Positions 20,400-38,249 of a DNA stretch of 64,000 bases are shown here, one piece after another. The stretch lies in contig DAMU01000036.1 of the NCBI GenBank assembly GCA_002499705.1, positions 7,314 through 71,313 of the forward strand, given 5' to 3'. Numbering within the stretch: position 1 is the stretch's first letter; each line of letters opens with the position of its first letter. The position numbers were made by a program, and so were the translations under genes. The DNA comes from Euryarchaeota archaeon UBA91. Lineage in GTDB: Archaea; Thermoplasmatota; Poseidoniia; Poseidoniales; Poseidoniaceae. The notes beneath the pieces are model-generated. The model was not told the DNA's origin. It did no database searches and worked only from the letters and a program-made list of their open reading frames with translations.

Positions 20400-20585
20400 C
20401 ATCCACTATGAACGGCTTACTTCGTTTGATTTTTTGGAAATCATGACTACTGTTATCTTGATATTATTAGTTGAGATTGATACATTAACACTCGTTTTTA
20501 CGATATTCTTGGCCGTTTTTGATATTCTTAAACGGGCAATTGAGGCGCAGTATTATATTCGAGGGAGAGATGGGAGAAAGGAGAG
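20400..20585. promoter_or_regulatory. AT-rich intergenic region with reiterated TTGATATT(A/C)TT motifs, upstream of the 1462-aa giant gene
   Basis: cttgatattattag, tacgatattcttgg and tttgatattcttaa fall within about 90 bp. The 84-aa ORF 20344..20598 called here is low-complexity and probably not coding. Confidence 0.3.
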
Positions 20586-23500
20586 GTGTCTATTTTGAAG
20601 AACACAACATCACACAAAAGCATATCGTTAGTCGCATTATTGTTGCTCTCAGTGTTAACCGGCCTGGTAACTCTACCAACCGCATCCGCTGTCAACGAAA
20701 CGAAGTCTGGAATTATTTCTGGAACTGAAACTTGGACTGGAACAATGAACCTCAACGGCGATGTTACCGTCGCAGAAGGTGCTAAACTCATCGTTAATGC
20801 AGGAACGACCGTAAACATACCTTATGGTTACTACATTGATGTTGAGGGTGCGATTTGTATCGGTGACACGTCATGCGGTTCAAGTTCTGGTTCAGCAAGT
20901 AATCAAGCACGCTTCATCTGGTCAACCCCTTCTGATTATACCCTACAAGGCCGCTGCTATTCGAATAACAGCAACAATCCAAACTACAATGATGATACTG
21001 CATGTGGTTCTGGAATGATTATTCGTTCCACTATTGACCAAGCGATAACTTCGATTAAATACGCTCACTTTGAAAATGCATACGGTATTCCCTTCGACAC
21101 AAATCAGGTGAGCGGTAAGCAATACGGTGTATTGGTTTTTGACGGTTCCTCGACAACCGCAACTGGACTCAGTTTCCAAGACATTAACACATCGAATATC
21201 ATTGCTCTGGACCTTGCATCACCAACCATTGATGATTCGACATTCACGCTTGGTATCGATGGTAATGGATACGATGCTGCAGCCGTTCGTGCCTATGGAG
21301 CTGGTGCTGGAATTCTTGGAACTATGCGTATACAGAACTCTGATTTCACCGGTAACACCGAAGCAGATTGTGGACAACAAGGCGGAGGCCGCAGCCTCAT
21401 TTACATCGAAGAGTCGTATGTAGATCTCTCGAATCTCGAACTCAAGGACAATGCATACGGATTGTTCTTGAAACAGAGTTCTGGCTCGCTTACAAATTCA
21501 ACAATTGATGTCAAGTGCAGTGGAATTGATACAAACTCTCACAAAGTCACTGGAACCATCAACCATACCCTATACCTAAACGACAACGACATCACAACCG
21601 CAGATGGTTCTGGAATCACTGCTTATGATGGTGCAATCGTTGTAGCAAACCGAAACACAATTTCAGGCGCAGCCCAGGGTTCAGGATTTGGTATCCGTTC
21701 GTCTTCTGTCATTGCAAATGACAACGTCATCGGTCCAATCGGTGGCTGGAATGGTTTGTGGATATACGGCACTTCTGATGTGAGTGCTGAAAACAACACC
21801 ATTCAGGATACAGCAAAAGAGGCCGTCCTCATTGGAGAATACCACTTCAACGACCAAGGATGGAATGTTCCTACACCAACTGCGGCTCGTTTGTATTTGG
21901 CAAATAACCTCATTTCCAACAACACTGGAACATGCAACTCACAAATGTATGATGGCGATTTCCCATGTCCAGCTATCCACGTTTTCATGTCATCTGCCAC
22001 AATTTATGATAACACTGTAGTCAATAACGGTGGAGATGGCATGCGTATCAAAGGCAGTATTGTCAATGCACAACGAAACACTATGGAAGTATCTGGCTTT
22101 GCAGCCAACATCAGCATGTTTGACGATAATTACGGAAGTAAATACGGTTCGATTGCATACTTCTCCGGCAACTCTTACTCGAATGCTTCACAAATTTACA
22201 ACATTACAGAATCCCGTGTTACCGTCCAATCTGAATATATCCCAGATGCAGGTGGCAACGAACTCTATCCCGTTCAATTGAGCTGGCTTGGTCCTGAATG
22301 CCCGTATGTATTGGATGAATGTCTCATTGTTCCATCGACTGCCGTCATGCCTCCAGCATTCATGCCTTTGGCACTGGAAGTTATCGACAACTCCACCGTG
22401 TTTTCATATGCGAACTTACAGAACTTTGACTCATCAAAGATTCATGTTCAGAACCAAAACTCAGCATGGGGTAGCCAAGTTCGTGAAGGTGAACTCGTGC
22501 GCTATCAAGTCAAAGCAAAGAACAGCAATGTTGCTGGAGCAACAGTCGTTATCCGTGATGCTACTGGACTACCACTCTACACATTGACAACCGATGCATT
22601 TGGATTCACACCAGAAGTATCTCTTCCATCTGATTTCCTTCTTGACCGTAATTGGAACCACTTAGTAGGTGAAAATAATGTTCAAATTCCTGGCGTGACG
22701 GATGCTCAAGGTAACCCTGTCTTTATCGATGAAGATTCATGTTCTGACGGATATGACAACGATGGTGATACCAAAGTAGATGCAGAAGACAGCGACTGTA
22801 CAAACGGTCGAGAGTTGCCGTTCTACTCCGTTGAAGCATACATGTTCGGCAAAGGTCAGAAAGATTTTGACTTCGTACTAAGCGGTTCGATTGATGATGT
22901 GATTAACCTTGATAATCTCAAACCAAGCGTGACTGTGACTCAAAATGACGGGTTCTCATTTGCCACAACTGTCGAACTTACCGGTTCTTCATGGGACGGT
23001 ATCAGCGGTCCTTACCCTCTGGACTTTGTTGCCTACCAAAACCAATTTGGATTAATCAAGCGTGTTGAAATCCAGCCCCCGGGTTCCACAGATTGGTACT
23101 CTGCTATCGATACATCGGGTGCGGCTGGTATGATCACCAAATCAAATCATCCTTTCAAGACATGGAGTTTTGACTGGGAAATGTCTGCTCATCCTGAAGG
23201 AGAAGGCGATGTTACATTCCGTGTGCGTTCATACGATGGCTTGGATTACTCACCTGTGGAAGTTCGTAAATACAAACTCAACTTGGTGGCTCCTTCGATT
23301 TTAGTTGACACTCCAAATGATGGGACATCTCACGATAATGGAAAAGTGACGTTCACCGGAACTGCCAGTGACCCCTATTCGGGAACTTGGGGGAGCGATA
23401 TCAACTCAATTTGGTTCGATATCAATGGTCCGAATGGATATACTGCTAACTTTGACATTCCCGGCTCAACCGCATGGGCATACGATTGGCAATTCCAAGA

Positions 23501-24974
23501 ATTGCAAACTGGTGAGTATGACTTCCGCATTTGGGCTTCAGACAGTGATTTCTGTAATTCAAAATCTGGATGGATGGATTGTAACTTTGAGACTCGAACC
23601 CTCAACATCAACACCGACAATGCAATTCCATTTGTGCAATTGAGTGAACCACTCAATACGGATATTCTTCGTGCAAGTGAAACTCAACTCATTCAAGGTG
23701 TAGCATTGGATAACGACGGACTTGTTACACGTGTTGAGATCAGCATTGTCGATTTGACGAGTGGTGTTGAAATCAACAACGGTCCGGACCCGGTTACCAA
23801 TTTCGCTCAAAATGGCGCCTGGTACACTACCTGGGATACCTCTGACCTCATCCATGACCAACAATATGAACTGGTCATCAAGGCATGGGACGGAAAGAAT
23901 TACTCGTTAGAAGAACGTATTCGAATCACCATTGACAACCCAAGTGATGCCGACAATCTCATCCCTGAATTCAATTCGACTGGATGGGTTGGAACCATTA
24001 CCCTGTTCTGTGATTCTAATCCGACCAAGCAAGATCGTTGTAACGGTGGAATCAGCATTGATTTGACAGATCACTTTTCTGATCCAGACGGTCCGACTGC
24101 CAGTGCGACCAACGGTCTTGTTTTCGACGTCTATGATGATTTGACGAATCTCGATGACGACGAATATGGAAACTACCTCACTTTCAGTTCTAATGGTGTA
24201 GTCAAGTATGACCCAGCCTATGTTACTGGTCTTTCAAATGACATCGCAGAATGGTCGCTTGTAGGCTTGATGTTTGAAGCACGTGATTCGTATGGTTCAG
24301 TTGCTTACTCCTACAAAGTCAACGTTGTAGTGGTTGAAGTTTCATTCACCGTTGAGCGTCAAGATTCGGGCTCGCTAGGACCGGGTAATCCTGCTGTGTT
24401 CAGTGGACAAGGGTTGCCGAACAGTCTTGTTGAAGCACGTTTCGATTCCCTCAGCGGGGTTCGAATCAATCAGACACGTGTGAATGCTGATGCTACGTGG
24501 GAAATGGAGATTTCAAGTAGCCAACTCTCGGGTATCGAAGGCACTCGAAACATCATCTTTGAGATGGACGATCAAGTCTTTACTCAGCCAGGTGAAAATT
24601 CCGGTGCTTTGTTCAAGGTCAGTCTTGGAGAAGAAGAGTCTTCAGGGCTTAATGTGGGAATGATTGCGCTAATTGCTGTTGGCGTTCTCTTACTCTTGGG
24701 AGCAGGAATGTTCTTCCTCCAAGTCGAATATGAAGAATTTGATGAAGAGTCAGAATTAACCGCTGCTGAAGAAAAAGCATCTGCCGATCCATATGCTTGG
24801 GCGAAAGCTCGCCAAGATTCGGCATCCATTCCTTCAAATCAAGTCGCAACAACTCCTGTAGCAGTTCAACAGGTCGTTACGAGTGCACCACAGGCATCCC
24901 AGCATCCAGGATGGCTATGGGATGCAGAGTCAAATAACTGGGTCCCAGACCCAAATTATGTCCCCGAACAGTGA
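20586..24974 (+). CDS. Giant secreted right-handed beta-helix protein with C-terminal TM anchor and Trp-rich cytoplasmic tail
   Basis: GTG start with GGGAG/GGAGAGG upstream; a TTG at 20595 is the alternative. Signal peptide ...LVALLLLSVLTGLVTLPTASA. Many parallel beta-helix turns (NDNVIGPIGGWNGLWIYGTSDVSAENNTIQD; YDNTVVNNGGDGMRIKGSIV). An aspartate-rich calcium-binding repeat (DEDSCSDGYDNDGDTKVDAEDSDC). TM helix MIALIAVGVLLLLGAGMFFL. Tail ends HPGWLWDAESNNWVPDPNYVPEQ. Confidence 0.7.
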   Translation: MSILKNTTSHKSISLVALLLLSVLTGLVTLPTASAVNETKSGIISGTETWTGTMNLNGDVTVAEGAKLIVNAGTTVNIPYGYYIDVEGAICIGDTSCGSSSGSASNQARFIWSTPSDYTLQGRCYSNNSNNPNYNDDTACGSGMIIRSTIDQAITSIKYAHFENAYGIPFDTNQVSGKQYGVLVFDGSSTTATGLSFQDINTSNIIALDLASPTIDDSTFTLGIDGNGYDAAAVRAYGAGAGILGTMRIQNSDFTGNTEADCGQQGGGRSLIYIEESYVDLSNLELKDNAYGLFLKQSSGSLTNSTIDVKCSGIDTNSHKVTGTINHTLYLNDNDITTADGSGITAYDGAIVVANRNTISGAAQGSGFGIRSSSVIANDNVIGPIGGWNGLWIYGTSDVSAENNTIQDTAKEAVLIGEYHFNDQGWNVPTPTAARLYLANNLISNNTGTCNSQMYDGDFPCPAIHVFMSSATIYDNTVVNNGGDGMRIKGSIVNAQRNTMEVSGFAANISMFDDNYGSKYGSIAYFSGNSYSNASQIYNITESRVTVQSEYIPDAGGNELYPVQLSWLGPECPYVLDECLIVPSTAVMPPAFMPLALEVIDNSTVFSYANLQNFDSSKIHVQNQNSAWGSQVREGELVRYQVKAKNSNVAGATVVIRDATGLPLYTLTTDAFGFTPEVSLPSDFLLDRNWNHLVGENNVQIPGVTDAQGNPVFIDEDSCSDGYDNDGDTKVDAEDSDCTNGRELPFYSVEAYMFGKGQKDFDFVLSGSIDDVINLDNLKPSVTVTQNDGFSFATTVELTGSSWDGISGPYPLDFVAYQNQFGLIKRVEIQPPGSTDWYSAIDTSGAAGMITKSNHPFKTWSFDWEMSAHPEGEGDVTFRVRSYDGLDYSPVEVRKYKLNLVAPSILVDTPNDGTSHDNGKVTFTGTASDPYSGTWGSDINSIWFDINGPNGYTANFDIPGSTAWAYDWQFQELQTGEYDFRIWASDSDFCNSKSGWMDCNFETRTLNINTDNAIPFVQLSEPLNTDILRASETQLIQGVALDNDGLVTRVEISIVDLTSGVEINNGPDPVTNFAQNGAWYTTWDTSDLIHDQQYELVIKAWDGKNYSLEERIRITIDNPSDADNLIPEFNSTGWVGTITLFCDSNPTKQDRCNGGISIDLTDHFSDPDGPTASATNGLVFDVYDDLTNLDDDEYGNYLTFSSNGVVKYDPAYVTGLSNDIAEWSLVGLMFEARDSYGSVAYSYKVNVVVVEVSFTVERQDSGSLGPGNPAVFSGQGLPNSLVEARFDSLSGVRINQTRVNADATWEMEISSSQLSGIEGTRNIIFEMDDQVFTQPGENSGALFKVSLGEEESSGLNVGMIALIAVGVLLLLGAGMFFLQVEYEEFDEESELTAAEEKASADPYAWAKARQDSASIPSNQVATTPVAVQQVVTSAPQASQHPGWLWDAESNNWVPDPNYVPEQ

Positions 24975-25032
24975 AGTCTCAACGCTCACGAAAGGGGAAC
25001 TATTGAAACGGAGGAAAACCGGAGAGAAGATT

Positions 25033-27558
25033 ATGGCTGTACAACCCAAACCAGGAGTGCAGGAAAGAATACTCTTGCACCTGCTTGATTACTCCGATTT
25101 CAAGAGCAGTGTCGAAGTTCCATTTGCACTTTCGCAGATGGGAATTGCAAATGCAGTAGCCATTGCCCGCTCGAACGTACCTCGTGCCATTGCAGGACTC
25201 AAAGACCAAGGACTTCTCATCGAGCGGCAGGCCCACGTTGCTGGTGTTTCGAGGAAGCGAAAGGCGTATTTTCTCACAGATCCAGGCATCAATGTCTCAG
25301 AAGAAACATGGACCAGGTTGCGAGAATTCCAGCTTCGAAGCATTATGGCTGATGGTAACATTATCAATTCAACTCTAGGGGAGATCAATGACCATCTTGA
25401 TTTCTCTATGCGCCCCGTAGATATTATTCGTTACATGGATGACAATTGCGTACTGGATACTCGAACATTGTCTGCTGATTTAGTTGAAAGGGATCTTTCA
25501 AAACATGTTGAAAAACAACTTGTCACTTCGCTTGGAGATTTGCCTCGCCTTCGACATTTCTACGGTCGTGAAAAAGAGTTGGACAACATGGTGAGTCTCG
25601 TTGATGCTCGAGCAACTACTTTGTTGGTCCCAGGTATCGCTGGTATAGGTAAAACCACAATTGCTTCAAAATTGATTGAACGATTTATGCATCGGCGTAA
25701 TTTGCTTTACCATCGCTGTCAAGATTGGGAAAGTTCCCGTTCATTCTTTGAGGCAGTTGCAGATTGGTTGGCAAATATTGGGGATTCGACCTTTTCTGAT
25801 TATTTGGCGGCAACTCCAGTCCCTCAGCCTGCAGATGCAGCACGGTTACTTGTTGACTCTCTGGAAGGAACGCCTACGCTGATTGTCATTGATGATTTTC
25901 ACAAAGTCGCAGACACGACATTGCATCAAACGTTCCAAGCGATGTCCTTAGCTCTCCTAGGCAGTGAGGAAGAAATTGGTCTGGTCATTTTTTCACGCTC
26001 ATTCAAACCCGTAGTGCCAGCAAAGGATGCAGAAGGTAGAATCGCAAGTTTAGTTCTACCACTCGATGGTTTAGATTCGGATGCTGGAAGGCAACTTTTG
26101 AGCAGTTTTGAAAATCTTGGAGACGAACAATGGCTCCACATTCACGGACTTTCAAGAGGTCATCCTCTTGTTTTAGAATTGATTAATCGCGGCGCTTCAG
26201 CAGGTGCTTACCACGAAACATTGGAGAATTATGTCACCGTTGAAATCTTTTCCAAGTTGAGTGGTGAACAAAAGCGAGTTCTTTCTGCCCTCGCAATTTA
26301 CCGTGAGCCAGTTGCTCTGAGTGCATTGGCTGAGCAGGGATTGGATACCGACGAATTGGATTCGCTTGTCGAACAAGGTTTGGCTCGTCAGGGCGATGTT
26401 GATTTTTACGATGTCCACGATTTAATTCGAGAGTTCTTAGTTCGCAGTTTAGATGAGAATACCAAGAAAGAATTCCATGCCAAATGTTGCCTCTGGTATG
26501 AGAAGCAAAATTTCACTGCAAGCATCATCATCGAACGTATTTATCATTTAATCCGCAGTGATAAAGGAGGAGATGCTGCCTTACTTATTGCTGATGAAGG
26601 TCGTGACCTTGTTGCACAAGGACACATGGAACTGTTGAGTTTAATCGAAGGTCTGTCGCTTGATGGACTCGATATTCAGATACAGATTCGAATTTTGCAA
26701 TTACGTGGTGAGATTCTCGTACTACTCGGCCGTTTCTTAGAAGCTGAAGAGATATTTTTGTCAACCCAATCTTTGACGGATTCTTCGAAGGCAACTCGTA
26801 TTGGTGCTGAAGTTCTGTCCGCATTAGCAGATATTGCCCTCAAGCAAGGCGACACGGACAAAGCACTTTCCATGCATCATGATGCTCTTGAAAAATTCAT
26901 TCAGTTTGGAGATGAAAAGGGTGCAGCTCGTTCGTACAACAACATGGGCTATTTACTACGCCGCAAAAATGACTTGTCAAAGGCATTGGATGCCTATGGT
27001 GAGGTTGAAACTATTTTGAAAGGTTCCAACAATGCTGAACTTGTGGGTACTCAACTTACACTTGCCCGTGCATTCATTGAACTGAATGAAATCGATCGTG
27101 CCCGTGACCATGCACTCCAAGCATTTGAGAATACTGATGGCGGTGACGATGTCTTGTTGCATGCTCGCGCTCAAGCGGTTCTCGGCCGTTATTATGCAAA
27201 AGTTGGGGATGCAGATGTCGCATCTCATCACTACTCAACAGCATTAGAGACCATGAGCGAAGCGGGTGACTTGTTGTCACTGGTTGAAATTACGATTCTT
27301 CTGGGAGAAGTCCTTCAAGATTCAGGGCGTGCGGAAGATGCTATGGAACATTACCGAGAGGCATTGGTTATCGCAGAAGCGAATGACCTTCGTATGCAGA
27401 TAGGAGAATTACTTTCACGTCTCGGTGGTGTTGCACCAGATAAGCCCCGTCGAATGGAGTATCTTCAGAGAGCATTATCTGTATTCAGGGAATTGGGCGC
27501 AAAATCCCGTATGAAGGAAGTTCAAGCTCAAGTTCATGCAGCAGTAATGGGCCGTTAA
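25033..27558 (+). CDS. Signal-transduction ATPase: N-terminal winged helix + STAND/NB-ARC-like P-loop NTPase + C-terminal TPR repeats
   Basis: Track ORF 24883 overlaps the upstream gene. The ATG at 25033 (MAVQPKPGVQERILLHLL) has a GGAGAG 6 nt upstream. The wHTH-like segment is ILLHLLDYSDF...GIANAVAIARSNVPRAIAGLKDQGLLIERQ. Walker A LLVPGIAGIGKTTIA (nt about 25634-25660). Walker B LIVIDDFH. TPR-like repeats after about aa 560 (ARSYNNMGYLLRRKNDLSKALDAY; AQAVLGRYYAKVGDADVASHHY; LLGEVLQDSGRAEDAMEHYREAL). Confidence 0.7.
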   Translation: MAVQPKPGVQERILLHLLDYSDFKSSVEVPFALSQMGIANAVAIARSNVPRAIAGLKDQGLLIERQAHVAGVSRKRKAYFLTDPGINVSEETWTRLREFQLRSIMADGNIINSTLGEINDHLDFSMRPVDIIRYMDDNCVLDTRTLSADLVERDLSKHVEKQLVTSLGDLPRLRHFYGREKELDNMVSLVDARATTLLVPGIAGIGKTTIASKLIERFMHRRNLLYHRCQDWESSRSFFEAVADWLANIGDSTFSDYLAATPVPQPADAARLLVDSLEGTPTLIVIDDFHKVADTTLHQTFQAMSLALLGSEEEIGLVIFSRSFKPVVPAKDAEGRIASLVLPLDGLDSDAGRQLLSSFENLGDEQWLHIHGLSRGHPLVLELINRGASAGAYHETLENYVTVEIFSKLSGEQKRVLSALAIYREPVALSALAEQGLDTDELDSLVEQGLARQGDVDFYDVHDLIREFLVRSLDENTKKEFHAKCCLWYEKQNFTASIIIERIYHLIRSDKGGDAALLIADEGRDLVAQGHMELLSLIEGLSLDGLDIQIQIRILQLRGEILVLLGRFLEAEEIFLSTQSLTDSSKATRIGAEVLSALADIALKQGDTDKALSMHHDALEKFIQFGDEKGAARSYNNMGYLLRRKNDLSKALDAYGEVETILKGSNNAELVGTQLTLARAFIELNEIDRARDHALQAFENTDGGDDVLLHARAQAVLGRYYAKVGDADVASHHYSTALETMSEAGDLLSLVEITILLGEVLQDSGRAEDAMEHYREALVIAEANDLRMQIGELLSRLGGVAPDKPRRMEYLQRALSVFRELGAKSRMKEVQAQVHAAVMGR

Positions 27559-28035
27559 TCAGTCATAGGTCTGTGGCCGATCGTATTGCAAGGTCGTCAT
27601 CCCATCAGAATGTACGACCCATACTGAAGTGACGCCTGCAAGAACTACAGTACCTTGATGTCCACCAGCTCCAGTGCCAGAGATTGAAACATTGGTATCG
27701 AGTGTCCCTCCCTCATCAATCAATTCTATTGAGGTGTCTGTTAGGATAATTTTCATCTGCGATTCATCCGCTTCAGTAAGTCTCCAAGTCACTTTTTCAG
27801 CATAATCAATTGCGCCCATACGACTTGCTTCGTCTGCACGTTCGACTGCTGCAGCAAGGTCGTCAAGATTTGATTGAATTGCATTTTCATTCCATCGTTC
27901 ACGGGTTGCAGTCTCAATCTCATAGGCCCACAAACTGAACATGGTAAGGAGTAAGACACCCAAAAGGAACGTGAAAATGTAACCCAACTCTGTTGCAGCA
28001 GCACGTTCATCGTGCATGAATCGCTTTGATTTCAT
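27559..28035 (-). CDS. Small pilin-like protein with class III (type IV prepilin-like) signal peptide
   Basis: N-terminus MKSKRFMHDERAAATELGYIFTFLLGVLLLTMF is a charged DER-A motif followed by a hydrophobic helix. It is the last gene of a three-gene minus-strand operon whose genes overlap by 4 nt (ATGA). Confidence 0.55.
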   Translation of the reverse strand: MKSKRFMHDERAAATELGYIFTFLLGVLLLTMFSLWAYEIETATRERWNENAIQSNLDDLAAAVERADEASRMGAIDYAEKVTWRLTEADESQMKIILTDTSIELIDEGGTLDTNVSISGTGAGGHQGTVVLAGVTSVWVVHSDGMTTLQYDRPQTYD

Positions 28036-30242
28036 GAGATGACCTCCGTCATGTGGGCATTTAGTGCAGCCATTTGAAGAGTGAACTGTATTGGTTCACC
28101 GTTGGTGTGCCAAACTGCTTCGGATGTTGCATATGATGGGTCTGGCACCCATCCAACATAATCACTCAACAAATCAATCCTTCCAGGATAAACAGTCCAA
28201 TCTTCACTTGATTCGAGCCCGTCTGCTGATGCATCAGCAATGGCCACTCCGTAAGGGCTTGACCATCCTCGACGAACCTCATAGGCAATCGTCGAAGCAA
28301 GCGATGAACGATCGACTAATTCTATGTCTAAGTTCATTGTTCCAGCGCCACTGACACTGTCTTGAGTAGGGTGAAGTGATGGTATGGTTGCAGCAAATCT
28401 TGGTCCGGGGCCCCCTCGGTCGGATGGAGATACCACAATGTATGGTTCAAATTCCGGATGGTTGGTGACCACAGCACCTCCGACATACGCCACTTCCATT
28501 CCGACAATTGATGAGGTGAACTCATAACTCAGTCGAGAGAGATGGAATCCCCACACTGTTCCGAGGTTTGCATGTGTTGAAGCACCGTTAACTCCAATGA
28601 GAGTAATTTGCATACTTGCTGGATGGTTTCCAGAACGCCATGCATTTTTCAGGTCAACTTGGCTTCTTCCACTCATCGATTGCCAAGGCAACTCCGTTGC
28701 AATCCATCCACTTGCCTGAACATTAATCGATAAACATCGTTGTGCTCCATCATGGTGTGCTTGGATAAGTCCATTTTGTCCACGTAAAAGGTAGAGTCGA
28801 AGTGCATGTCCATCTTCAACGTTCATTTGATTGACTCCCTGATTGATGTTAACAGTTCGCTGGGTATTTTCATCAAAGAGTGAGCCATTGGCATTACTCG
28901 CACCGGTTAAGTTCCAATCAACAATCATACCGGCCCGGACAAGATGGATTTGTTTGTTGCTTGAACCGTCTGCGTAGATCGTGTGTGATTGGCCTGACAA
29001 TGCACCAGTATCATCTGCAGCAATTACCTGCAATCCAGAACCGTTTGTATCTGCTCGCCAAGAGACGAAAACGTCTCCATTTGCATCAAGCATTGGAGCA
29101 CCATCAATTTCAGCAGGAGGCCAATCAAAACTGAGACTTTGGTTTGCAGCAACAGAAACCCCACCGCCTCTCCATGTTACGGTGACACTTGTCTGGCCGG
29201 GATTGGTGAAGACCAATTCACCTTCAAGCGATGGCGTTACAAATGAATGACCAAGATATTGTCCATCGGAACTTGGCCAAGCGGTTTGACCAACATTGAC
29301 TTCTGTATTTGTTTGAAGAAGAAGCCTTGAGGGTGCACTGGTCGTAATGTGGACCACCTCAGGCGTGTCAAGGGAGAATTGATGAGTGAAATCTACCCCT
29401 ACACGGTTTTGATTTGACGGTAATGCATAATGTGAATTTGAGGTTTGATTGGTAATTATTATCTGGTTTGCAACCTCGCTCAGTATGTGGATTTGATTGT
29501 TTCCAGCCGGCAATGGAAGTGACCAAGAGGTACCGGTTAAATCGACTGGATTTGGGTCATTGGCTTGCATTAATGTCGTCCCACCATTTCCTCGAGAAAG
29601 CAGTAGATGCAGTTCATGAGAAGAATGGATGACTATTTCACCAGATTGACTGGTATTGACGATGTGCATTCCATCAACCATAAGTTCGAGTTCAGATAGC
29701 TTCGTGGATTGATTCCAAATTTCGATCTCAATAGGCCCAAGAGGGAGTGCGAGTCCAGGTGATGCAGTCATTGTGACGCTCTCCACCCATTCAGGGATGG
29801 TGAACATGTATGGATTCGCAGGACCGAGACGCAGGTCATCAACACACACTGCAGAATTCATGGATTCTGGGTGCCGTACGCTGAACTGGTCATCATAGTC
29901 GAGGGCTCCCTGAACTCGGAAACTGGTGTCGTCGAACCAAGTTGCAGAATACCACATGCTGCTTTGCATCATGTTCCAGTTCAAACTGCCGTCCACGGGA
30001 ATAAGTTCAATTTCCGTAGAATCTCCTGGCATTCCACTTTCGCTTAGAGATGAGGTTTGATGCGCTAACAGCGACATTTGAGAAGACATATCATGACGTT
30101 CGATTGAGCCCTCCAATTCCTCAATGACTGGAATCATTGAAACCATCATCATACCGATGATACTCAGAACTCCGCCGAAGAGAAGAACAGTGGCAACCGC
30201 TGCTGAAACGGCATCTTCATCACGTTGCAGGTTGTACTTCAT
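28032..30242 (-). CDS. Large pilin-like / pilus-associated protein with class III signal peptide (736 aa)
   Basis: N-terminus MKYNLQRDEDAVSAAVATVLLFGGVLSIIGMMMV has the R-D-E-D-A-V-S motif and then a hydrophobic helix, as in archaeal prepilins. It overlaps both operon neighbours by 4 nt. Confidence 0.6.
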   Translation of the reverse strand: MKYNLQRDEDAVSAAVATVLLFGGVLSIIGMMMVSMIPVIEELEGSIERHDMSSQMSLLAHQTSSLSESGMPGDSTEIELIPVDGSLNWNMMQSSMWYSATWFDDTSFRVQGALDYDDQFSVRHPESMNSAVCVDDLRLGPANPYMFTIPEWVESVTMTASPGLALPLGPIEIEIWNQSTKLSELELMVDGMHIVNTSQSGEIVIHSSHELHLLLSRGNGGTTLMQANDPNPVDLTGTSWSLPLPAGNNQIHILSEVANQIIITNQTSNSHYALPSNQNRVGVDFTHQFSLDTPEVVHITTSAPSRLLLQTNTEVNVGQTAWPSSDGQYLGHSFVTPSLEGELVFTNPGQTSVTVTWRGGGVSVAANQSLSFDWPPAEIDGAPMLDANGDVFVSWRADTNGSGLQVIAADDTGALSGQSHTIYADGSSNKQIHLVRAGMIVDWNLTGASNANGSLFDENTQRTVNINQGVNQMNVEDGHALRLYLLRGQNGLIQAHHDGAQRCLSINVQASGWIATELPWQSMSGRSQVDLKNAWRSGNHPASMQITLIGVNGASTHANLGTVWGFHLSRLSYEFTSSIVGMEVAYVGGAVVTNHPEFEPYIVVSPSDRGGPGPRFAATIPSLHPTQDSVSGAGTMNLDIELVDRSSLASTIAYEVRRGWSSPYGVAIADASADGLESSEDWTVYPGRIDLLSDYVGWVPDPSYATSEAVWHTNGEPIQFTLQMAALNAHMTEVIS

Positions 30243-31324
30243 CGAGATACCTCCACGCGCTTTACATCCACTTCAAGATACAACTGTGCACCTTGGGTTT
30301 CAACAGTAAAACCATCTGCACCGCTTGCTCTCAAAAACGGGGCATACCCAACATAGGTGTCCAAGGTGCCCGATGCTCTGTTGAGATTGTATTCATCCAG
30401 CATTCGATCATGATATTGGGGTGTTATCAAATCATTGAGGGAATTGACGACTGTGAATTTCACATTGTATGCCTCACCGGAAAAAAGCGTCATTGGGCCC
30501 ATCGAAATCATGTTCATTCCAATTTTATTTCCAGAGCCAAGTGAACCGTTAATCGTGACATCACTGAGGACCAGTGAGAGACGAAACTCACCGTTTACCA
30601 GTGGGTCGATTTCGATTTTTGGAAAGTGAGAAACACTCCATGGCTCATTTGGAAACCTCTCTACTCGAGCATTATTCATCAAAGCGATTTGGTGTTCACC
30701 CTGTCCAAGAGAAGTTGTGATTTGGATTCCAGAAATGAGATAGGTGAAACTGCGATGAATCGGATTGTTATCCGAATCAAAAACTGTAACTACCATCCAG
30801 TGCTGTTGAGTTGAGTTATGCCTCACAAGAACTTCTTCATGTGACGCTTCAAAGGAAAAACTCTCAACCCCGTATTCGGTTTCAATGGTTATGCTTCGTG
30901 CAGTTTCGTTCATCGAATAAATGCCTAAGGCGGAACTATTTTCATCTCGAACAGTGACTGAATCATACGGTGTCAAATCAGCCGCCATCGTCCAAGTTTC
31001 TACTTTTTCCACCGATTGAATCATCGTAGATTGCAATGCAAGAGTGTGACGTATTCCCGTTCCTTCGGGCGCTCCGCCTGCGACATCAATTCGGTCTTCG
31101 AAACGTTCCGCAATTCCTGTTGCGCTGTTCCAGTTTGTATTGTCTTCAAAATCAGTGATGTAGGGGTTCAAGAAAACCCACACCCCACCCATAATTGTGA
31201 TGACCATGGCGAGCATCATCACGACTCCGAGAACTTCACTGACAGCCCTTTGGTCTCGTCGAAGAGACGGGCGCCAAACTGTGTTTGGTTGTGCGTTCAC
31301 ATACGGCACAACCTTTGGCATCAT
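30239..31324 (-). CDS. Pilin-like protein with class III signal peptide (archaeal type IV pilin N-terminal domain, DUF1628-like)
   Basis: RRDQRAVSEVLGVVMMLAMVITIMGGVWVF at aa 22-51 is a near-textbook archaeal class III signal (RAVSEV-hGhh). It is preceded by a 21-aa leader. First gene of the operon. Confidence 0.65.
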   Translation of the reverse strand: MMPKVVPYVNAQPNTVWRPSLRRDQRAVSEVLGVVMMLAMVITIMGGVWVFLNPYITDFEDNTNWNSATGIAERFEDRIDVAGGAPEGTGIRHTLALQSTMIQSVEKVETWTMAADLTPYDSVTVRDENSSALGIYSMNETARSITIETEYGVESFSFEASHEEVLVRHNSTQQHWMVVTVFDSDNNPIHRSFTYLISGIQITTSLGQGEHQIALMNNARVERFPNEPWSVSHFPKIEIDPLVNGEFRLSLVLSDVTINGSLGSGNKIGMNMISMGPMTLFSGEAYNVKFTVVNSLNDLITPQYHDRMLDEYNLNRASGTLDTYVGYAPFLRASGADGFTVETQGAQLYLEVDVKRVEVSR

Positions 31325-31340
31325 TTAGCAATTGACCCTC

Positions 31341-31362
31341 TCACCCCCCCATAGGGGGGTGA
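31341..31362. promoter_or_regulatory. 9-bp G/C palindrome TCACCCCCC-cata-GGGGGGTGA between the metallo-beta-lactamase gene stop and the pilin-operon start
   Basis: Perfect inverted repeat about 20 bp upstream of the operon's start codon on the minus strand. ATTTTG follows on the + strand. Confidence 0.35.
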
Positions 31363-31380
31363 TTTTGTCAATAACTCATT

Positions 31381-32199
31381 TCACGGAGAACTCTTTTTGA
31401 GCAACTCATTTTCGTTGCTCTGGCCGATATAGTGGGAGCGCTCTGGGCCATCTTGGAGTGAGATTGTAATGTCTCCAGTAAACAGTTCATCAATGTGGTA
31501 AAGAACGGTGGATTCAGCAAGGTGGGGTTGATTGTTTTTTTCCGACAAGTGCGTGAGTGAAATACTCTTAGTAGCAGGCGTGCAAACCTGTGCCAAGAAA
31601 CGCCCAGTTTGGTCATTTGACAGGTGCCCTCCTCGGCCGCTAATTCTGTCTTTGAGTGTGTAAGGATATGGCCCATTCATCAACCGGTTGTGGTCATAAT
31701 TTGCCTCAATCGAAATGTGTTCGCAACCGCGTACATGCGTGACAAGTTCATCTGTCCATGAACCGAGGTCTGTAATAACGGCAGCCCTCTGTCCGTTATG
31801 ACTTGCAACAAATGCTACATTATCTGCACCTGAATGAGGGACAGGGACGGGGAGTATCGCTAAATCCTCGCTTACTCGAATGACGTCGAGTGCTTCAAAA
31901 TAATGAGTGAGTTCAGGCATGAGACCGAGCTCTTCTGCAGTTCGGTGATTTGCCTGAATGTTCATATTCCATCTTTTCTGAGAAACAGCAGCACCTCCAC
32001 CATGATCACCGTGATGGTGGGTAATGAAAATATAATCAATATCGGTTGGGTGAAGATTCAATCTTCCAAGTCTTTTCTCAAGTTGTGCGCCACTGAATCC
32101 TTGGTCGATCAACACTTTCGCCTGTTCGGTTTCAAGCAACGTCGCATTTCCGCGACTGCCTGTACCAAGGTGCGTGAGTGTCATCGTCATCTCAATCAT
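31381..32199 (-). CDS. Metallo-beta-lactamase (MBL)-fold metallo-hydrolase
   Basis: TLTHLGTGSRGNATLLE and IFITHHHGDHGGG (the HxHxDH zinc motif), then downstream His and Asp residues. The track start at 32349 adds 50 atypical residues. I prefer ATG 32199, 32190 or 32184 (MIEMTMTLTHLG). Confidence 0.65.
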   Translation of the reverse strand: MIEMTMTLTHLGTGSRGNATLLETEQAKVLIDQGFSGAQLEKRLGRLNLHPTDIDYIFITHHHGDHGGGAAVSQKRWNMNIQANHRTAEELGLMPELTHYFEALDVIRVSEDLAILPVPVPHSGADNVAFVASHNGQRAAVITDLGSWTDELVTHVRGCEHISIEANYDHNRLMNGPYPYTLKDRISGRGGHLSNDQTGRFLAQVCTPATKSISLTHLSEKNNQPHLAESTVLYHIDELFTGDITISLQDGPERSHYIGQSNENELLKKSSP

Positions 32200-32424
32200 T
32201 AGTACCGTGACGCGAACGGTCTTTGAAGAAACCGCATCAATTGCTGCAAACTTTGTGATTTCCTCCTTCAAGTTGCCTTTTCTGAAGGTCCAATTCCAGT
32301 TTAAATCGAAGGAATTTTCCGGTCGATGAATGAGGACTTGTCCGAACATCGCTCCATCACCCTCATAAGTGTCTTGAAAGGGTTGAGCACCTGCGAAGCG
32401 TATGCTTTGTAGGCTGGTCTCAAA

Positions 32425-35400
32425 ATGCGTCGTAGTTTAACCACTCTTCTAACCACACTTGCTGTTGTAGCAAGTCTGGTGTTCATGTCACAATTTCCAG
32501 CAATTTCGCCGGTTTCGAATTTGCATCCAGATACCACGGATGGCTCCAAGCCCCCATCGACAGATACCGACGGAGATAAAATCCCAGATGTCCATGAAAA
32601 TCTGTTTGAGGAATGGATGAATTGGAGTACTGTTGATGGCCGAATCATTGTCATGCCAGGCATGGACAGTAACAATGCGTCCGATGCATTGGTGGATAAT
32701 GACCGAGATGGTTTGAATGCTACCGAAGAATTTTGTTGGCCTTATCCCGCAAATTGTACTGCTCCTGGATTCCCTCGCGGACTGACTGGGGTTGTAGACA
32801 GTGAGGGTGAGCGCAGTTATCTTGACCCTCGTGTCTCTGATACAGATGGAGATGGAATGCCTGATGGATATGAAGCATACATGTGTGAACGCGTTGGCGG
32901 TTTCAACATATTTTCGCTCAAGTATGAGTGCCAAAACTTCGACCCTCTAAACGGATCTGATGTTTACGATGATCCTGATGAAGATGGATTTGACGTTAAT
33001 CGAGACGGCGTATTATCAACCACTGAACGCTTTTCATCTCCGGAGGAATACATTTACGGAGCGCCATTGAATCATACGACTGAATTGGACGGCATGTGGT
33101 GCTCTGCAACATTACCTGAAGGCTCAGTCTTCAAGAACTGGCCATTTATTCCAACCGGCCCTAATGCTACTTTCACAAATCTACTCTCAGCATGTACTGA
33201 GAATGCCACGATGGTCATTGACGAAGACATTTGGCTAGGAACTGACCCTCTTCTTGCAGACTCTGACCGCTACCATTGGGATGGCTTTTCAATTCGCAGA
33301 CTTTTCCCTTCTTTCGGAGATGGGATTCCAGATGGATGGGAAGTCCATTTCGGCCTAGAACCACTTAACCGGACCAATGCTCTTCTCGACCCAGACTTGG
33401 ATGGTTGGGATGCGAACCGAGATGGGGGAGTCTCTCCGGATGTAAGTCGTACGTTAACAGCACTGGCATTAGGTGAATCATTGTCTACATTGGAAGAGTA
33501 CTTCGTCCATGAGGATAATGGAAACTCCGTACTTCCTGGTATGAAATCAGTTCTCCTTGGCAACCAACTTGATACTCACGAATCAATGCCTCTGAGCTTT
33601 GTCACACCTGCTGAAGAAATGAGCCTCATACATTACGATCTTCGTGATTTAGAAAGTGATGGGACGATGCTTTATGCAACAACTCGATACGGCGTAACGG
33701 TTTTTGATTTTGAACAGTCCGTGAATTATGATCATTGGATGCCTCAAGGTGTTGAGTTGCATGAGTCTCTTCTTCTTTCCTTACAAGATACCAGTTTTGC
33801 TTTAGCCCTTGCAACAAATGTTGGATTGGCAGTCGCCCCTCTTCAAGCCAATGGTGATCTCGCTCCTCTGGAAAGTTGGTCATGGTCGCTATCTGAAGAA
33901 ATTCACGCACTTGCCGCATTGAACATTGAAGGTCAAAATCAGCAAATCCTCGGCTTAGGTCAATCCGGTCAAGGAGCTGTTTTTGAAGTCACCACATTAT
34001 CACAAATCGCTCAACAATATTCCATTGCGGTAGGACTTGAAACAGCCCTTAGTCAATCGAATGCAAGCGTAACTAGCATTGCACATGGTGCAGCAGGTGG
34101 AGGAAATAATACGCTCTATGTCGGAACCGATAGAGGGTTAATTATCGGTGAGACTTCAACGGCCCGTGGTATGTTTGAACCGACTTGGCGATTTTATTAC
34201 ACCCCCGAAGTGACGCCGTATCCAACAGCAATCGATGAAATTCGCTCTCTCTCTCTGGGCATGGTTGCCAATCCGGCAGAGGTTCGAACGATGGTGCTTG
34301 ATGGACCTACACCCAGCAATGCTCAGGTCTTGTGGTTTGGAACTCCTTCTGGAGTTCATATGATGAATCTCCTTGACAATTCGATTTCACACAGTGGATT
34401 ATTGGAGCACCCTGGAGTCGAAGGCAAATACCTGCGTGAATACAATAACGTCCATTCAATTCTCCCTACTGGTGATGAACTTTTGATTGGTTCAGACAAG
34501 GGGCTTTGGGCTATTTCCGGTGATTATTCTGCAGTCTATGGCTTCCAAAACCAGGAAACAGTCTATGGAGAAATTGTCACTATCCAAACAATTACAGTTG
34601 ATGAAAATACAACAATTTACACTGGTTCCGCACCAGGGAAATACGCAAATCTTGAATTGATGAACCCTGGAGCAAATGATTCCGATAATGATGGTATGCC
34701 GGATGGTTGGGAAGTCGCCAATGGTTTGGACCCAACAGATCCTTGGGACTCACTTTTTGATATGGATGGAGACGGTATAGACCTCGACCAATCAGGTGAT
34801 GGTTTCTTAGAACGACTTTGGACGAATTTAGACGAGTATCGATTCGTTAGTCAGACGACTGCAGGCTACAATTCAACCAATCCGAAAGCGGGTGATACCG
34901 ATGGTGATGGATTGGGCGATGGTAGTGAGTACTTTGGGTTCTTTTACGAAAATTCTACTCTCTGGTGCCACTATACGGTCCAAATGGAATACATTTGTGA
35001 TGATGCAGCCGGACAAGCAGCGAATGCGACTTATCTCGGTCTTTCCAGCAGCGACAGAGGTACTGACCCAACAAATTTCGACAGCGATGGTGACGGCATG
35101 CCTGATGGATGGGAAATACACCATCGACGATGGATTGGTTCTTCGTTTACCGGTGGTAATAACTGGACTCTGGACCCGAATCGCGCCGAAGATGCAAATT
35201 GGGATGCAGACCGTGATGGTTTAGCAAATCTATGCGAATATCAGTGGTCGCTTGTACGAAGTGCAGCAATTGAAGGCTTGTTACTCGAATCTCATGGAGA
35301 AACGGTCAATGCGAGTCTGGATTGGTTTGATGCTGACCCAAACAACATTGATTCTGATGGTGATACGTTGCCTGATGGTTGGGAATCTGGCGGCGCTTGC

Positions 35401-38178
35401 ACTTGGGACCCTTCTCGCCAAGGTGTGAACCCGCTCAACGCCTCAGACCTCTTTGAAAATCCAGATGGAGACGGATATGACATCAATCATGATGGAGTCT
35501 TAGACGACAACGAAGCCTTTGTCAACTACTTAGAATTCCATATTCGTTCTGACTTATTCAGTGGTAATCAGACCCTTGATGGTGTGGCTTTACCTAACGG
35601 ATTCTCAACTGACCTCTTTTCGAATGTCAGTTCATTTGGAATTCCAGAAGCGAACTTTGGTGAACGTGCATCAGGCTCAGTCACCGCCCTTCAATCAATT
35701 ACTGATGTTGGCTCATCTGACCCATTCAACGCAGATTCGGATTCAGATGGAATGCCGGATGGATGGGAGATTTGGTTTGCTCGCTGGAATGTTCTCGATG
35801 ATGGATGGACGTTGAATCCTCTTGATTCATCTGACCGTTGGGAAGACGCAGATGACGATGGAATGGCGAATTGGGAAGAATACAATGCTATCTCTCCTGA
35901 ATATACCGAAACAGATCAAAATCGTTCAGCTCCACAATGGTTTGTCACAACCGTCGGTTCAGCATTTGCTTTGCAACAATGGCCTGGTAACTCTGTTGAG
36001 TTCTCCTTTGGTTCATTCATCACTCAAGACCAAGTGAACCTTACCGGATGGACATGTGACCCAAACAATGTCGACACAGATGGGGATGGCATGATTGATG
36101 GCATAGAACAATTGTTCACCTCATGGAATCTCACCGCCGAAACTTGGACGCTTAATCCGTTGGTTGCAGGCGATGGTGATTTCGATGGAGATGCGGATGG
36201 GCTGATTGATAGCCAAGAATTTGCAATCGCTGTCGAGGCCCCAACCAATGGTTTAGAGCACCCCTCAGATGCTCCTCTGCTCCACCTTGATGGAGATGTC
36301 CAACAGCCTACTGAGAAGGCACAACGGGTGTTTAACATTCTCATCACCAAAGAGACACGAGGTAAGCGTCTGTTAAACGACTTCAACGACTGGCAAGCAG
36401 GAGTTCCTCCAAATGCGATTCTCTCGACACTTCTTGGAATGTCTGATCCAACAAATCCTGACACAGATGACGATGGCATGTATGACGGTTTTGAGTATTG
36501 GTTCACCGAATGGGATCTAGAAGAAAACCGATGGAGTATGAATCCACTCATCGACAGTGACGTTAATCTTGATACGGATGGCGATAGTTTCGATTGCGAT
36601 GGTGATGGGAATATCTCGATGGAGGAACGTTTCTCCAATTTACGTGAATGGGAGTCTCGCACATATGGGAAATACCTCGAGCGTTTCTCGGTCCCAGTTG
36701 ACAAAGGAATCGTTAACTTTGGCGATGACGCTATGCAGGCTTACATGGAAGAACAGGGCATGAATCTTCTTCAAGCGCAGCAAGCACTGTACACTGATTT
36801 CGCATCCAAGAGTCAATCGAGTGCAGACAGAATGGCCATGATCAATGAATTTAATCAAGATAATTTCAATCGCACTTTACTTGGAATCTCAGACCCAACC
36901 AATTCCGATTCTGATTCTGATGGAATTGAGGATGGATGGGAATATTGCTATGCTGTCTTCGGCATGGAAGATCCTACGACCATCAACCACTGGGCTGCAA
37001 ACCCTCTCAACCCTTGGGATGTTAATTACGATGGAGACCGTGATGGATGGTATGGCCGTACCGTCTTTGACCAGCCTGCCACGCAAGGCAGTTGGTCAGG
37101 TCGAGTATTTACTCCCGGAACCGCAGTCGTTCAGTCTGGACTTGGCGATTTGCCTTTCACTAACTGGATGGAATGGGATAACATGACGCGTCCTGATTTG
37201 AACGATTCAGATGGAGACAGTATTTCCTATTCAACAGTAGTCTCGAACGGAGCAGTTGTTTACCATCAGCAAGATTTCAATTTATCAGATGGTCGGGAGG
37301 TGTTCAAGTATGGAATTAACCCGAGTGATAATGATTCTGATGGCGATATGCTACCAGACTGGTATGAGTATTCGAAAGCTTGGAATGAATCAAACGACAA
37401 CTTTAGTTCGTTTTTACAAATTCAGGTTATTTGGATTGATGCTGCTACTGGAGGTGCATGTTCCACCGATACAAATTCCTGTCTTCCTCTATCCCAGCAA
37501 GGAGCCAATGGAATACTTTCACGTCCAAATCTCGCCTCGACTTGGTTTACTTTGAATCCTGCCGATCCCGTAGATGCTAATTACGACCCTGACCAGGATG
37601 GAAATTGGGATTGCAGTGGCGCAGGATGTGTCTATGAGCCTTATACGAATTTCCAAGAATTTTTCAGTATCACTGACACTGACCTCTCCTCGCCTAATGC
37701 GGTGCGACTTAGCGGAATGATCTATGATGGCGAAGTTGTATTGGAGTGGTGGCAGTTAAGGGCAGCACTCTTGAAGCTCGATTCATCCGGAGTAAGTAGC
37801 GAAAATTACTTGAAAATGGATAAATCCTTTGCCAATGATATTCGATTTGCTTACATCGTCGATGACAGAGATACGAATTTCCTCGTTCTTGATTCCAGTG
37901 ATGATGTAATTCATTTGGCAGGAAATCGAACCGATTCATGGGATATGTATTATGTCGGTTCGCCAAATACTGCACCTGTGAGGGCCGTCGGTGAACATGA
38001 ATTCGGATGGTATCTGCTCGACTTAGACAACGACCACATCGCAGAGGGTACTGACCCTACGAACTGGGATACAGATGGTGATTGGATGGTTGATTGGTTT
38101 GAAGTTCATGATGATGAAGAAGACGGAATTCGTGGAGATTCTTCACCGATTCGTTATGATTCTCGTCAAACTGGATGA
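32425..38178 (+). CDS. Giant secreted protein (1917 aa) built from thrombospondin-type-3 / dockerin-like Ca-binding D-x-D-x-D-G repeats; no C-terminal TM anchor
   Basis: Signal peptide MRRSLTTLLTTLAVVASLVFMSQFPAISP. At least 15 repeats such as DTDGDGMPDGYE, DSDNDGMPDGWEV, DSDGDGMPDGWEI, DSDSDGMPDGWEIWF, DTDDDGMYDGFEYWF, DSDSDGIEDGWEY and DTDGDWMVDWFEV. A central Gly/Ala-rich region (about aa 370-700) may be a propeller. The C-terminus ...DSSPIRYDSRQTG has no hydrophobic segment. Confidence 0.7.
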   Translation: MRRSLTTLLTTLAVVASLVFMSQFPAISPVSNLHPDTTDGSKPPSTDTDGDKIPDVHENLFEEWMNWSTVDGRIIVMPGMDSNNASDALVDNDRDGLNATEEFCWPYPANCTAPGFPRGLTGVVDSEGERSYLDPRVSDTDGDGMPDGYEAYMCERVGGFNIFSLKYECQNFDPLNGSDVYDDPDEDGFDVNRDGVLSTTERFSSPEEYIYGAPLNHTTELDGMWCSATLPEGSVFKNWPFIPTGPNATFTNLLSACTENATMVIDEDIWLGTDPLLADSDRYHWDGFSIRRLFPSFGDGIPDGWEVHFGLEPLNRTNALLDPDLDGWDANRDGGVSPDVSRTLTALALGESLSTLEEYFVHEDNGNSVLPGMKSVLLGNQLDTHESMPLSFVTPAEEMSLIHYDLRDLESDGTMLYATTRYGVTVFDFEQSVNYDHWMPQGVELHESLLLSLQDTSFALALATNVGLAVAPLQANGDLAPLESWSWSLSEEIHALAALNIEGQNQQILGLGQSGQGAVFEVTTLSQIAQQYSIAVGLETALSQSNASVTSIAHGAAGGGNNTLYVGTDRGLIIGETSTARGMFEPTWRFYYTPEVTPYPTAIDEIRSLSLGMVANPAEVRTMVLDGPTPSNAQVLWFGTPSGVHMMNLLDNSISHSGLLEHPGVEGKYLREYNNVHSILPTGDELLIGSDKGLWAISGDYSAVYGFQNQETVYGEIVTIQTITVDENTTIYTGSAPGKYANLELMNPGANDSDNDGMPDGWEVANGLDPTDPWDSLFDMDGDGIDLDQSGDGFLERLWTNLDEYRFVSQTTAGYNSTNPKAGDTDGDGLGDGSEYFGFFYENSTLWCHYTVQMEYICDDAAGQAANATYLGLSSSDRGTDPTNFDSDGDGMPDGWEIHHRRWIGSSFTGGNNWTLDPNRAEDANWDADRDGLANLCEYQWSLVRSAAIEGLLLESHGETVNASLDWFDADPNNIDSDGDTLPDGWESGGACTWDPSRQGVNPLNASDLFENPDGDGYDINHDGVLDDNEAFVNYLEFHIRSDLFSGNQTLDGVALPNGFSTDLFSNVSSFGIPEANFGERASGSVTALQSITDVGSSDPFNADSDSDGMPDGWEIWFARWNVLDDGWTLNPLDSSDRWEDADDDGMANWEEYNAISPEYTETDQNRSAPQWFVTTVGSAFALQQWPGNSVEFSFGSFITQDQVNLTGWTCDPNNVDTDGDGMIDGIEQLFTSWNLTAETWTLNPLVAGDGDFDGDADGLIDSQEFAIAVEAPTNGLEHPSDAPLLHLDGDVQQPTEKAQRVFNILITKETRGKRLLNDFNDWQAGVPPNAILSTLLGMSDPTNPDTDDDGMYDGFEYWFTEWDLEENRWSMNPLIDSDVNLDTDGDSFDCDGDGNISMEERFSNLREWESRTYGKYLERFSVPVDKGIVNFGDDAMQAYMEEQGMNLLQAQQALYTDFASKSQSSADRMAMINEFNQDNFNRTLLGISDPTNSDSDSDGIEDGWEYCYAVFGMEDPTTINHWAANPLNPWDVNYDGDRDGWYGRTVFDQPATQGSWSGRVFTPGTAVVQSGLGDLPFTNWMEWDNMTRPDLNDSDGDSISYSTVVSNGAVVYHQQDFNLSDGREVFKYGINPSDNDSDGDMLPDWYEYSKAWNESNDNFSSFLQIQVIWIDAATGGACSTDTNSCLPLSQQGANGILSRPNLASTWFTLNPADPVDANYDPDQDGNWDCSGAGCVYEPYTNFQEFFSITDTDLSSPNAVRLSGMIYDGEVVLEWWQLRAALLKLDSSGVSSENYLKMDKSFANDIRFAYIVDDRDTNFLVLDSSDDVIHLAGNRTDSWDMYYVGSPNTAPVRAVGEHEFGWYLLDLDNDHIAEGTDPTNWDTDGDWMVDWFEVHDDEEDGIRGDSSPIRYDSRQTG

Positions 38179-38249
38179 CATTTGTCATTTGACTCGTAGG
38201 GGCATGATTCAAAGGCCATAGGCTCTAAGCCCTGTTAGGGGGAGCGTAT

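Follow-up and report, generated by a model that had tools for sequence, protein, structure and literature searches.

An operon of three pilin-like proteins within a conserved surface-protein block of Marine Group II archaea

Several archaeal systems use pilins whose genes lie away from the machinery that assembles them. The haloarchaeal adhesion pilins of the PilA type (Pilin_N/DUF1628, PF07790) are served in trans by PilB3/PilC3, the pilin genes of Cuniculiplasma (Thermoplasmatota) are found about 500 kb from the machinery, and the ATPase/TadC modules of Euryarchaeota often work with pilins whose genes are in trans (Makarova et al., 2016). FlaFind-positive, all-beta minor pilins of 250–550 amino acids (aa) have also been described (arCOG02911; Makarova et al., 2016). 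Here we report three adjacent genes, g1, g2 and g3, in a stretch of 64,000 nucleotides from Euryarchaeota archaeon UBA91 (assembly GCA_002499705.1, contig DAMU01000036.1, positions 7,314 to 71,313; hereafter the window, whose own numbering is used below). Archaea are thus known to have both pilin-like gene sets at a distance from the ATPase gene and large minor pilins that are all-beta; this trio adds a new, order-specific member. We propose, with a probability of roughly 55%, that the three proteins form an equimolar minor-pilin/tip-adhesin complex assembled in trans on a type IV pilus-like filament.

The genes run on the minus strand in the order g1 (30239..31324; 361 aa), g2 (28032..30242; 736 aa) and g3 (27559..28035; 158 aa). 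Each is supported by its open reading frame (ORF) and by the N-termini of its orthologues, g1 additionally by profile matches and g2 by an AlphaFold model. An earlier note on this DNA had described three minus-strand genes of these sizes with 4-nt overlaps, and the ORFs and their ATGA junctions bear this out. At the g1/g2 junction (30239..30254, minus strand) the g1 stop codon TGA (30239–30241) overlaps the g2 ATG (30240–30242), and at the g2/g3 junction (28032..28047, minus strand) the g2 stop codon TGA (28032–28034) overlaps the g3 ATG (28033–28035). A perfect Shine-Dalgarno sequence, GGAGGT, lies 6–7 nt 5' of each of these two ATG codons, within the 3' end of the preceding gene (30249–30254 for g2 and 28042–28047 for g3). 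Together, the overlaps and these sites make a textbook layout for translational coupling, and hence for roughly equimolar synthesis of g1, g2 and g3. The operon ends with the small subunit g3, a coupled gene whose product has the highest conservation in the trio (79% mean column identity), and it contains no separately expressed major pilin. Strict coupling, the small subunit in last place and the graded sizes argue for ‘minor’ rather than ‘major’ subunits. Sets of at least three co-encoded pilin-like proteins of graded size, one of them large, are known elsewhere: GspI-J-K, FimU-PilV-W-X with PilY1, TadE/F/G and Methanococcus EpdA-C. The members of GspI-J-K, PilV-W-X, TadE-F-G and EpdA-C are produced in small, matched amounts, and their presumed function is to prime filament assembly and to form the cap. 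However, the bacterial minor-pilin sets and the Epd proteins share no homology with the trio beyond the N-terminal helix, so that the analogy is functional only, and the Epd pilins further differ from the trio in having Q at +1 and in being encoded beside eppA.

All three proteins begin with a short charged leader, a G/A at position −1 and a hydrophobic stretch, which are the marks of a class III (prepilin-type) signal. A crude scan of the window was based on the same features: a G/A closely preceded by a charged residue and closely followed by a strongly hydrophobic stretch. Of the 220 ORFs in the window that reach 60 aa, those with 100 aa or more were tested. Apart from two ordinary Sec-type signals, the scan flagged as class-III-like g1, g2 and g3 only, and since these three are adjacent, the clustering is not a matter of chance. 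The predicted cleavage sites are RA↓VSEVLGV in g1 (leader residues 1–27, 31244–31324, minus strand, followed by a hydrophobic helix at residues 28–53), EDA↓VSAAVATV in g2 (leader residues 1–11, minus strand) and RA↓AATELGYIFTF in g3 (leader residues 1–12, 28000–28035, minus strand). Counted over distinct orthologue N-termini, the −1 residue is A or G in 74 of 74 for g1, followed by an invariant VSEVLGV; in 64 of 64 for g2, followed by an essentially invariant VSAAVATV; and in 47 of 49 for g3, followed by an invariant AATELGY. Pooled over the trio this amounts to 185 of 187, with the hydrophobic positions +1 to +7 invariant or nearly so. The leaders themselves vary among orthologues in both sequence and length, and the switch to invariance is abrupt, at one position. 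Unless a peptidase is involved, it is difficult to account for a strictly conserved A/G at −1 next to leaders that vary so freely. Judging from these N-termini, whose quoted starts in the earlier note proved exact, g1, g2 and g3 are very likely pilin-type class III signal proteins.

In g1 and g2 the site reads (D)(E)(R)A↓VS, a type of motif known from euryarchaeal Pilin_N proteins. With the PilA-type pilins the trio has in common the (D/E)(R)A↓VS sequence, the conserved hydrophobic H-domain and the A/G at −1, as well as the location of the genes away from an ATPase and platform. In contrast, the PilA-type proteins are small, stand-alone major pilins, whereas the trio consists of three coupled genes (158, 361 and 736 aa) with unrelated ectodomains. 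The median leader is 11–12 aa long in g2 and 12 aa in g3. For g1 it is 27 aa in Marine Group IIa (MGIIa), compared with 12 aa in a Marine Group IIb (MGIIb) locus (positions 8943–8978 of locus L008). The MGIIa leaders of g1 have a conserved M-I/M-P...VN start.

Profile searches linked the N-terminus of g1 to archaeal pilin families, just below the curated cut-offs. g1 scored 24.4 bits against DUF7289 (PF23960; cut-off 27; profile positions 1–80 of 238), 22.3 bits against Pilin_N (PF07790; cut-off 25.2; profile positions 1–27 aligned) and 15.1 bits against TIGR02537, the archaellin/pilin N-terminal domain (cut-off 20). The Pfam matches recur across g1 orthologues, 54 of 55 of which match DUF7289 and 50 of 55 Pilin_N (best E 1e-4), and are therefore systematic although sub-threshold. 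g2 scored 24.1 bits against DUF7289, below the cut-off of 27 and over positions 1–80 of 238 only. A full-length DUF7289 match above 27 bits was found for neither g1 nor g2; some orthologues bear precomputed PF23960 matches. For g3, the match was to DUF7266 (PF23928; 15 bits, E 0.02, below the cut-off of 27.6; positions 2–142 of 145), a family matched by 16 of 60 g3 orthologues (best E 0.0047). DUF7289 and DUF7266 are the best-scoring Pfam families and are uncharacterised, and g1 and g2 correspond to just the N-terminal third of DUF7289. A literature search on DUF7289, DUF7266 and related names found no papers, and none was found that describes the trio. The hidden Markov model search for the archaeal pilin N-terminal domain that the earlier note had proposed as a check thus gave a recurrent but sub-threshold Pilin_N match for g1 and no Pilin_N match for g2 or g3.

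The three families were also compared with each other. A profile-profile comparison with hhalign showed the N-terminal 46 residues of g1 and g2 to be homologous (E 2.5e-5) and nothing else in them to be alike, and g3 to be weakly similar to both. Searches of PDB sequences with profiles of all three families gave nothing significant; their sole hint was a non-significant match (E 0.59) of the g1 N-terminus to the Natrinema pilin PilA2. None of the three proteins matched Arch_flagellin, the globular domain expected of an archaellin (FlaB/ArlB). One g1 homologue carries the label ‘FlaG/FlaF family’ in the annotation of the Joint Genome Institute (JGI), and several others are named ‘flagellin-like protein’. 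N-glycosylation sequons are not enriched in g1, g2 or g3.

The predicted structure of g2 follows the plan expected from its N-terminus. An AlphaFold run with a 12-sequence alignment (predicted local distance difference test score, pLDDT, of 51) was superseded by one with a diverse 34-sequence alignment, which gave a pLDDT of 86.4 and a predicted template-modelling score (pTM) of 0.84. In this model, one continuous 61-residue helix (residues 9–69; 30036–30218, minus strand) is followed by an ectodomain of about 665 residues that are almost all beta-strand. Structure prediction, which the earlier note had suggested for the 736-aa protein, thus returned a long alpha-1 helix and an all-beta body, the combination of long alpha-1 and beta-rich globular domain that is typical of a pilin. 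In outline, the modelled fold is the ‘lollipop’ of a pilin, its head being very large. Conservation peaks in the helix (0.72–0.80) and in residues 570–720 (0.72–0.82) and is lowest in the middle (0.39–0.58). Two cysteines, C133 and C503, are invariant, a pair that fits a presumed extracellular location. Foldseek searches of PDB and BFVD with the g2 model found only generic multi-beta-sandwich proteins, including toxins, macroglobulins, tail proteins and PA14/FN3 proteins, at template-modelling scores (TM-scores) of at most 0.17. With only such generic matches, the ectodomain is adhesin-like in architecture only; on the model, a role for g2 as a large tip adhesin is plausible. The arCOG02911 minor pilins, with which we compare g2 by description, likewise combine a FlaFind-type signal with a long all-beta, Ig-like ectodomain and have been proposed to be shared between systems, but g2 is larger (736 aa against their 250–550 aa), has relatives, by exhaustive search, only in Poseidoniales and is not encoded beside an ATPase/TadC module. 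Another likeness is to PilB and PilC of Streptococcus sanguinis, in which large extracellular modules that mediate adhesion are grafted onto a pilin N-terminus. Those proteins are bacterial, however, and their modules are recognisable (vWA, lectin), whereas the modules of g2 match nothing specific.

The g2 family has a narrow distribution. A search with its profile against 1.84 billion representative proteins returned only 133 clusters, about 13 of them full length, including one from a metagenome-assembled genome (MAG) of the Thalassarchaeaceae (MGIIb); the named homologues are from Poseidoniales (Marine Group II, MGII). An identical 736-aa g2 occurs in GCA_002725875.1, on an 87.8-kb contig, and in five other marine assemblies. 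In a scan of one genome per GTDB species, g2 relatives were found in at least 365 species. The best 80 of the 365 species were used for all synteny and neighbour counts given here. Their records are mostly titled Poseidoniales, Poseidoniaceae or Poseidonia and include the Iverson MG-II chromosome; the others are labelled Euryarchaeota, Methanobacteriota or Thermoplasmatota, with one Verrucomicrobiales. As far as these homologues indicate, the family is order-specific and nearly universal within Poseidoniales. The trio also occurs in MGIIb/Thalassarchaeaceae with its signal motif intact. The Verrucomicrobiales record is a 72-kb contig (L065, NZEQ01000036.1) deposited as ‘Verrucomicrobiales bacterium isolate ARS100’ that bears the Poseidoniales block described next, and it is probably mis-binned or mislabelled.

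The trio is part of a surface-protein block of about 35 kb (9454..43685), recognized by synteny. Its genes are, in order, those for a 3210-aa STT3 fusion, an S8 protease, a 1462-aa beta-helix protein and a STAND/TPR protein, then the trio, and then those for a metallo-beta-lactamase (MBL)-fold hydrolase, a 1917-aa TSP3-repeat protein and an 1811-aa protein. The order g1-g2-g3 is found in 80 of 80 loci, and wherever the contigs are long enough the same ten genes keep their order and orientation. The block is complete in 45 of the 80 loci, and nearly all of the others show the same order until it is ended by a contig edge; a homologue of the 1811-aa protein was not detectable in four of the 80. 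The arrangement is kept in the most divergent members, including those of MGIIb. Few archaea of the surface oceans are as abundant as those of Marine Group II, which are uncultured. We know of nothing established by experiment about their envelope or their attachment to particles or phytoplankton. The sole attachment proposal for them is ‘flagellum-based adhesion’. The trio, annotated as ‘hypothetical’ and nearly universal in the order, offers specific candidate proteins for the tip of an adhesive pilus or for an envelope complex. Its interest lies in the combination of an abundant uncultured organism, an unusually large pilin-like subunit and an invariant 35-kb surface block.

We propose that each of the three proteins would insert into the membrane via its N-terminal hydrophobic helix, and that a prepilin peptidase of the PibD/FlaK type, encoded elsewhere, would trim the short charged leader after the conserved A/G. 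Contacts between the alpha-1 helices would then join the mature proteins as a heterotrimer, a minor-pilin complex whose role would be to prime and cap either a filament of the type IV pilus kind or a short pseudopilus. In g2, the multi-beta-sandwich ectodomain of 665 aa would be the exposed, adhesin-like part, its variable middle facing outward and its conserved N- and C-terminal parts contacting the partner subunits. The ATPase and platform that build the filament would be supplied in trans, the likeliest candidate being the second of the FlaI/FlaJ pairs that are reported for MGIIa. As the earlier note had claimed, there is no assembly ATPase, platform or peptidase in the window: ORFs of at least 120 aa gave no match to T2SSE, T2SSF or Peptidase_A24, even at E ≤ 5 in the case of the unassigned ORFs. 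A 318-aa ORF with seven predicted transmembrane segments (54680–55636) was considered as a hidden peptidase or platform and rejected, as it has no GxGD motif and no family match. Nor is there an ATPase, platform or peptidase within 10 kb past the right end of the window, where housekeeping genes lie, and no fla genes stand beside the trio in any locus examined. For the protein at the left end of the window, a look-up gave no record. This absence is correct but not unusual, because pilins encoded in trans are known in Euryarchaeota and in Cuniculiplasma. Each MGIIa population is reported to have two FlaI, two FlaJ and one FlaK (Orellana et al., Table S4), which leaves a second ATPase/platform pair without known pilins as a natural partner for the trio. 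The source of the window belongs to MGIIa, and we infer that the trio is linked to this second pair.

Several observations weigh against a pilus tip. Among the Foldseek hits in PDB and BFVD, neither a pilin nor an adhesin matched the g2 ectodomain specifically; no match of g1, g2 or g3 reached the curated cut-off in Pfam or NCBIfam; and in MGIIa the g1 leader, with a median of 27 aa, is long. What is known of a peptidase, an ATPase and a platform for the trio comes from the lineage literature alone. That literature reports no FlaI, FlaJ or FlaK in three of four MGIIb populations (Orellana et al., Table S4), yet the trio is present in MGIIb and in at least 365 species. The archaellum operon is reported from all MGIIa genera and only half of the MGIIb genera (Rinke et al.). 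The main rival reading is that the trio is a membrane-anchored heterotrimeric envelope complex that needs no assembly ATPase, an account that we regard as possible but clearly the less probable one. Here the helices, cleaved or not, would serve as anchors or oligomerisation stalks, and the complex would organise, tether or mature the neighbouring giant glycoproteins, being formally like ArlF/ArlG or bindosome-type proteins. In its favor, an order-wide block houses the trio alongside the STT3 fusion, the S8 protease and giant surface proteins; the trio extends to MGIIb, from which FlaI, FlaJ and FlaK are reportedly mostly absent; coupling implies strict 1:1:1 synthesis in an operon without a major pilin; and one g1 homologue carries the JGI ‘FlaG/FlaF family’ label. 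However, a strict A/G at −1 next to a variable leader is what peptidase recognition predicts and is needless for a plain anchor, and neither Pfam nor NCBIfam yielded a match to ArlF/ArlG, to an S-layer family or to an anchoring family. ArlF/ArlG (FlaF/FlaG), the archaellum stator, do resemble the trio in having an N-terminal pilin-like helix and a beta-sandwich, but the trio lies outside the archaellum operon, and g1 and g2 differ from them in size. Moreover, the lack of machinery in MGIIb is reported in the literature at the level of populations, and absence calls based on KEGG in MAGs can miss divergent A24 peptidases. If the trio-bearing MGIIb genomes are fla-negative, then the trio must work without type IV machinery, and the block context would point to an envelope complex. 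The trio-bearing MGIIb MAGs (TMED85 and a North Sea MAG) were not found in the supplements as either fla-positive or fla-negative. Comparing the distribution of the trio with that of FlaK, FlaI and FlaJ would show whether these pilin-like proteins still depend on type IV machinery. It is rather doubtful, though worth stating, that the trio is an order-wide envelope core that works without any type IV ATPase, platform or peptidase, would persist in MGIIb genomes lacking FlaI, FlaJ and FlaK, and serves as a co-opted, membrane-anchored heterotrimeric scaffold for the giant glycoproteins of the block. Were this true, the 35-kb block would be the long-unknown envelope or attachment module of the ocean's most abundant planktonic Euryarchaeota.

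Two other roles fare worse against the same evidence. The trio might supply accessory or minor subunits of the archaellum (minor archaellins, a cap or an adhesive tip) built by the archaellum FlaI/FlaJ, which would agree with the ‘flagellin-like protein’ names of several g1 homologues, with the weak g1 match to TIGR02537 and with the archaellum operon of all MGIIa genera, for which adhesion has been proposed as a role. We think this unlikely, given that no protein of the trio matches Arch_flagellin, that the trio never lies beside fla genes in the loci examined and that it extends to MGIIb lineages, whose archaellum genes are patchily distributed. The earlier note had also raised the alternative of a substrate-binding bindosome. 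On this reading, the proteins would be displayed at the surface to feed ABC transporters, as in Sulfolobus. The class III signals are compatible with this, and nothing more speaks for it: searches of Pfam, NCBIfam and PDB sequences detected no substrate-binding domain, the conserved block contains no ABC transporter genes, and the g2 model is a chain of beta-sandwiches and not a Venus-flytrap fold. With neither a binding domain nor a transporter, the bindosome is largely refuted, and we give it very little credence. A minor-pilin/tip-adhesin complex assembled in trans is the reading that we favor over these.

The genes that flank the trio were described in the earlier note as those for a wHTH-STAND-TPR protein and an MBL-fold hydrolase, and family searches agree with both assignments. 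The MBL-fold hydrolase (31381..32349, minus strand) lies upstream of g1 on the same strand with a gap of 56 nt and is there in 74 of 80 species; its gene may be co-transcribed with the trio as the first of a four-gene operon. A precomputed match to Anti-Pycsar Apyc1 (PF23023) is on record for it and suggests a cyclic-nucleotide phosphodiesterase-like enzyme. Between this gene and g1 lies a G/C hairpin, TCACCCCCC-TAT(G)-GGGGGGTGA (31341..31362, minus strand), which is the 9-bp palindrome TCACCCCCC/GGGGGGTGA seen earlier. It is clade-specific: of the 16 closest species 15 have it, as do two further ones, and it is absent elsewhere. The C6/G6-7 stem is kept among them and the loop varies (TAT, TGT, TAA, TTA, TTC, TAG). 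A search of Rfam gave no family for the hairpin, and no T-run follows it.

On the other side, the wHTH-STAND(AAA_16)-TPR protein (24883..27558, plus strand) is convergent with g3, neighbours the trio in 79 of 80 species and is a candidate regulator of it. Its stop codon abuts that of g3 with zero spacer (27556–27561), so that the two transcripts must overlap or terminate inside each other; in locus L008 of MGIIb, the 3' ends of the two genes overlap by 4 nt. The longest STAND/TPR ORF extends about 90 nt into the end of the 1462-aa gene (24883–24974), and gene callers give a protein of 866–878 aa; the true start is probably downstream of 24883. The STT3 fusion (AglB-type glycosyltransferase, 3210 aa) has 18 predicted transmembrane segments and a huge extracellular part. 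The 1462-aa and 1811-aa proteins each finish in a transmembrane helix and a tail rich in Trp and Pro. Between the S8 protease and beta-helix genes lies a small ORF that was checked as a possible Flp-like pilin and is not pilin-like. Toward the right end of the window, the 318-aa ORF with seven transmembrane segments, a 742-aa ORF and a 679-aa ORF (54680–57875 and 61751–63790) have no family match even at E ≤ 5. The only Rfam match in the window is a single tRNA gene (3053–3126).

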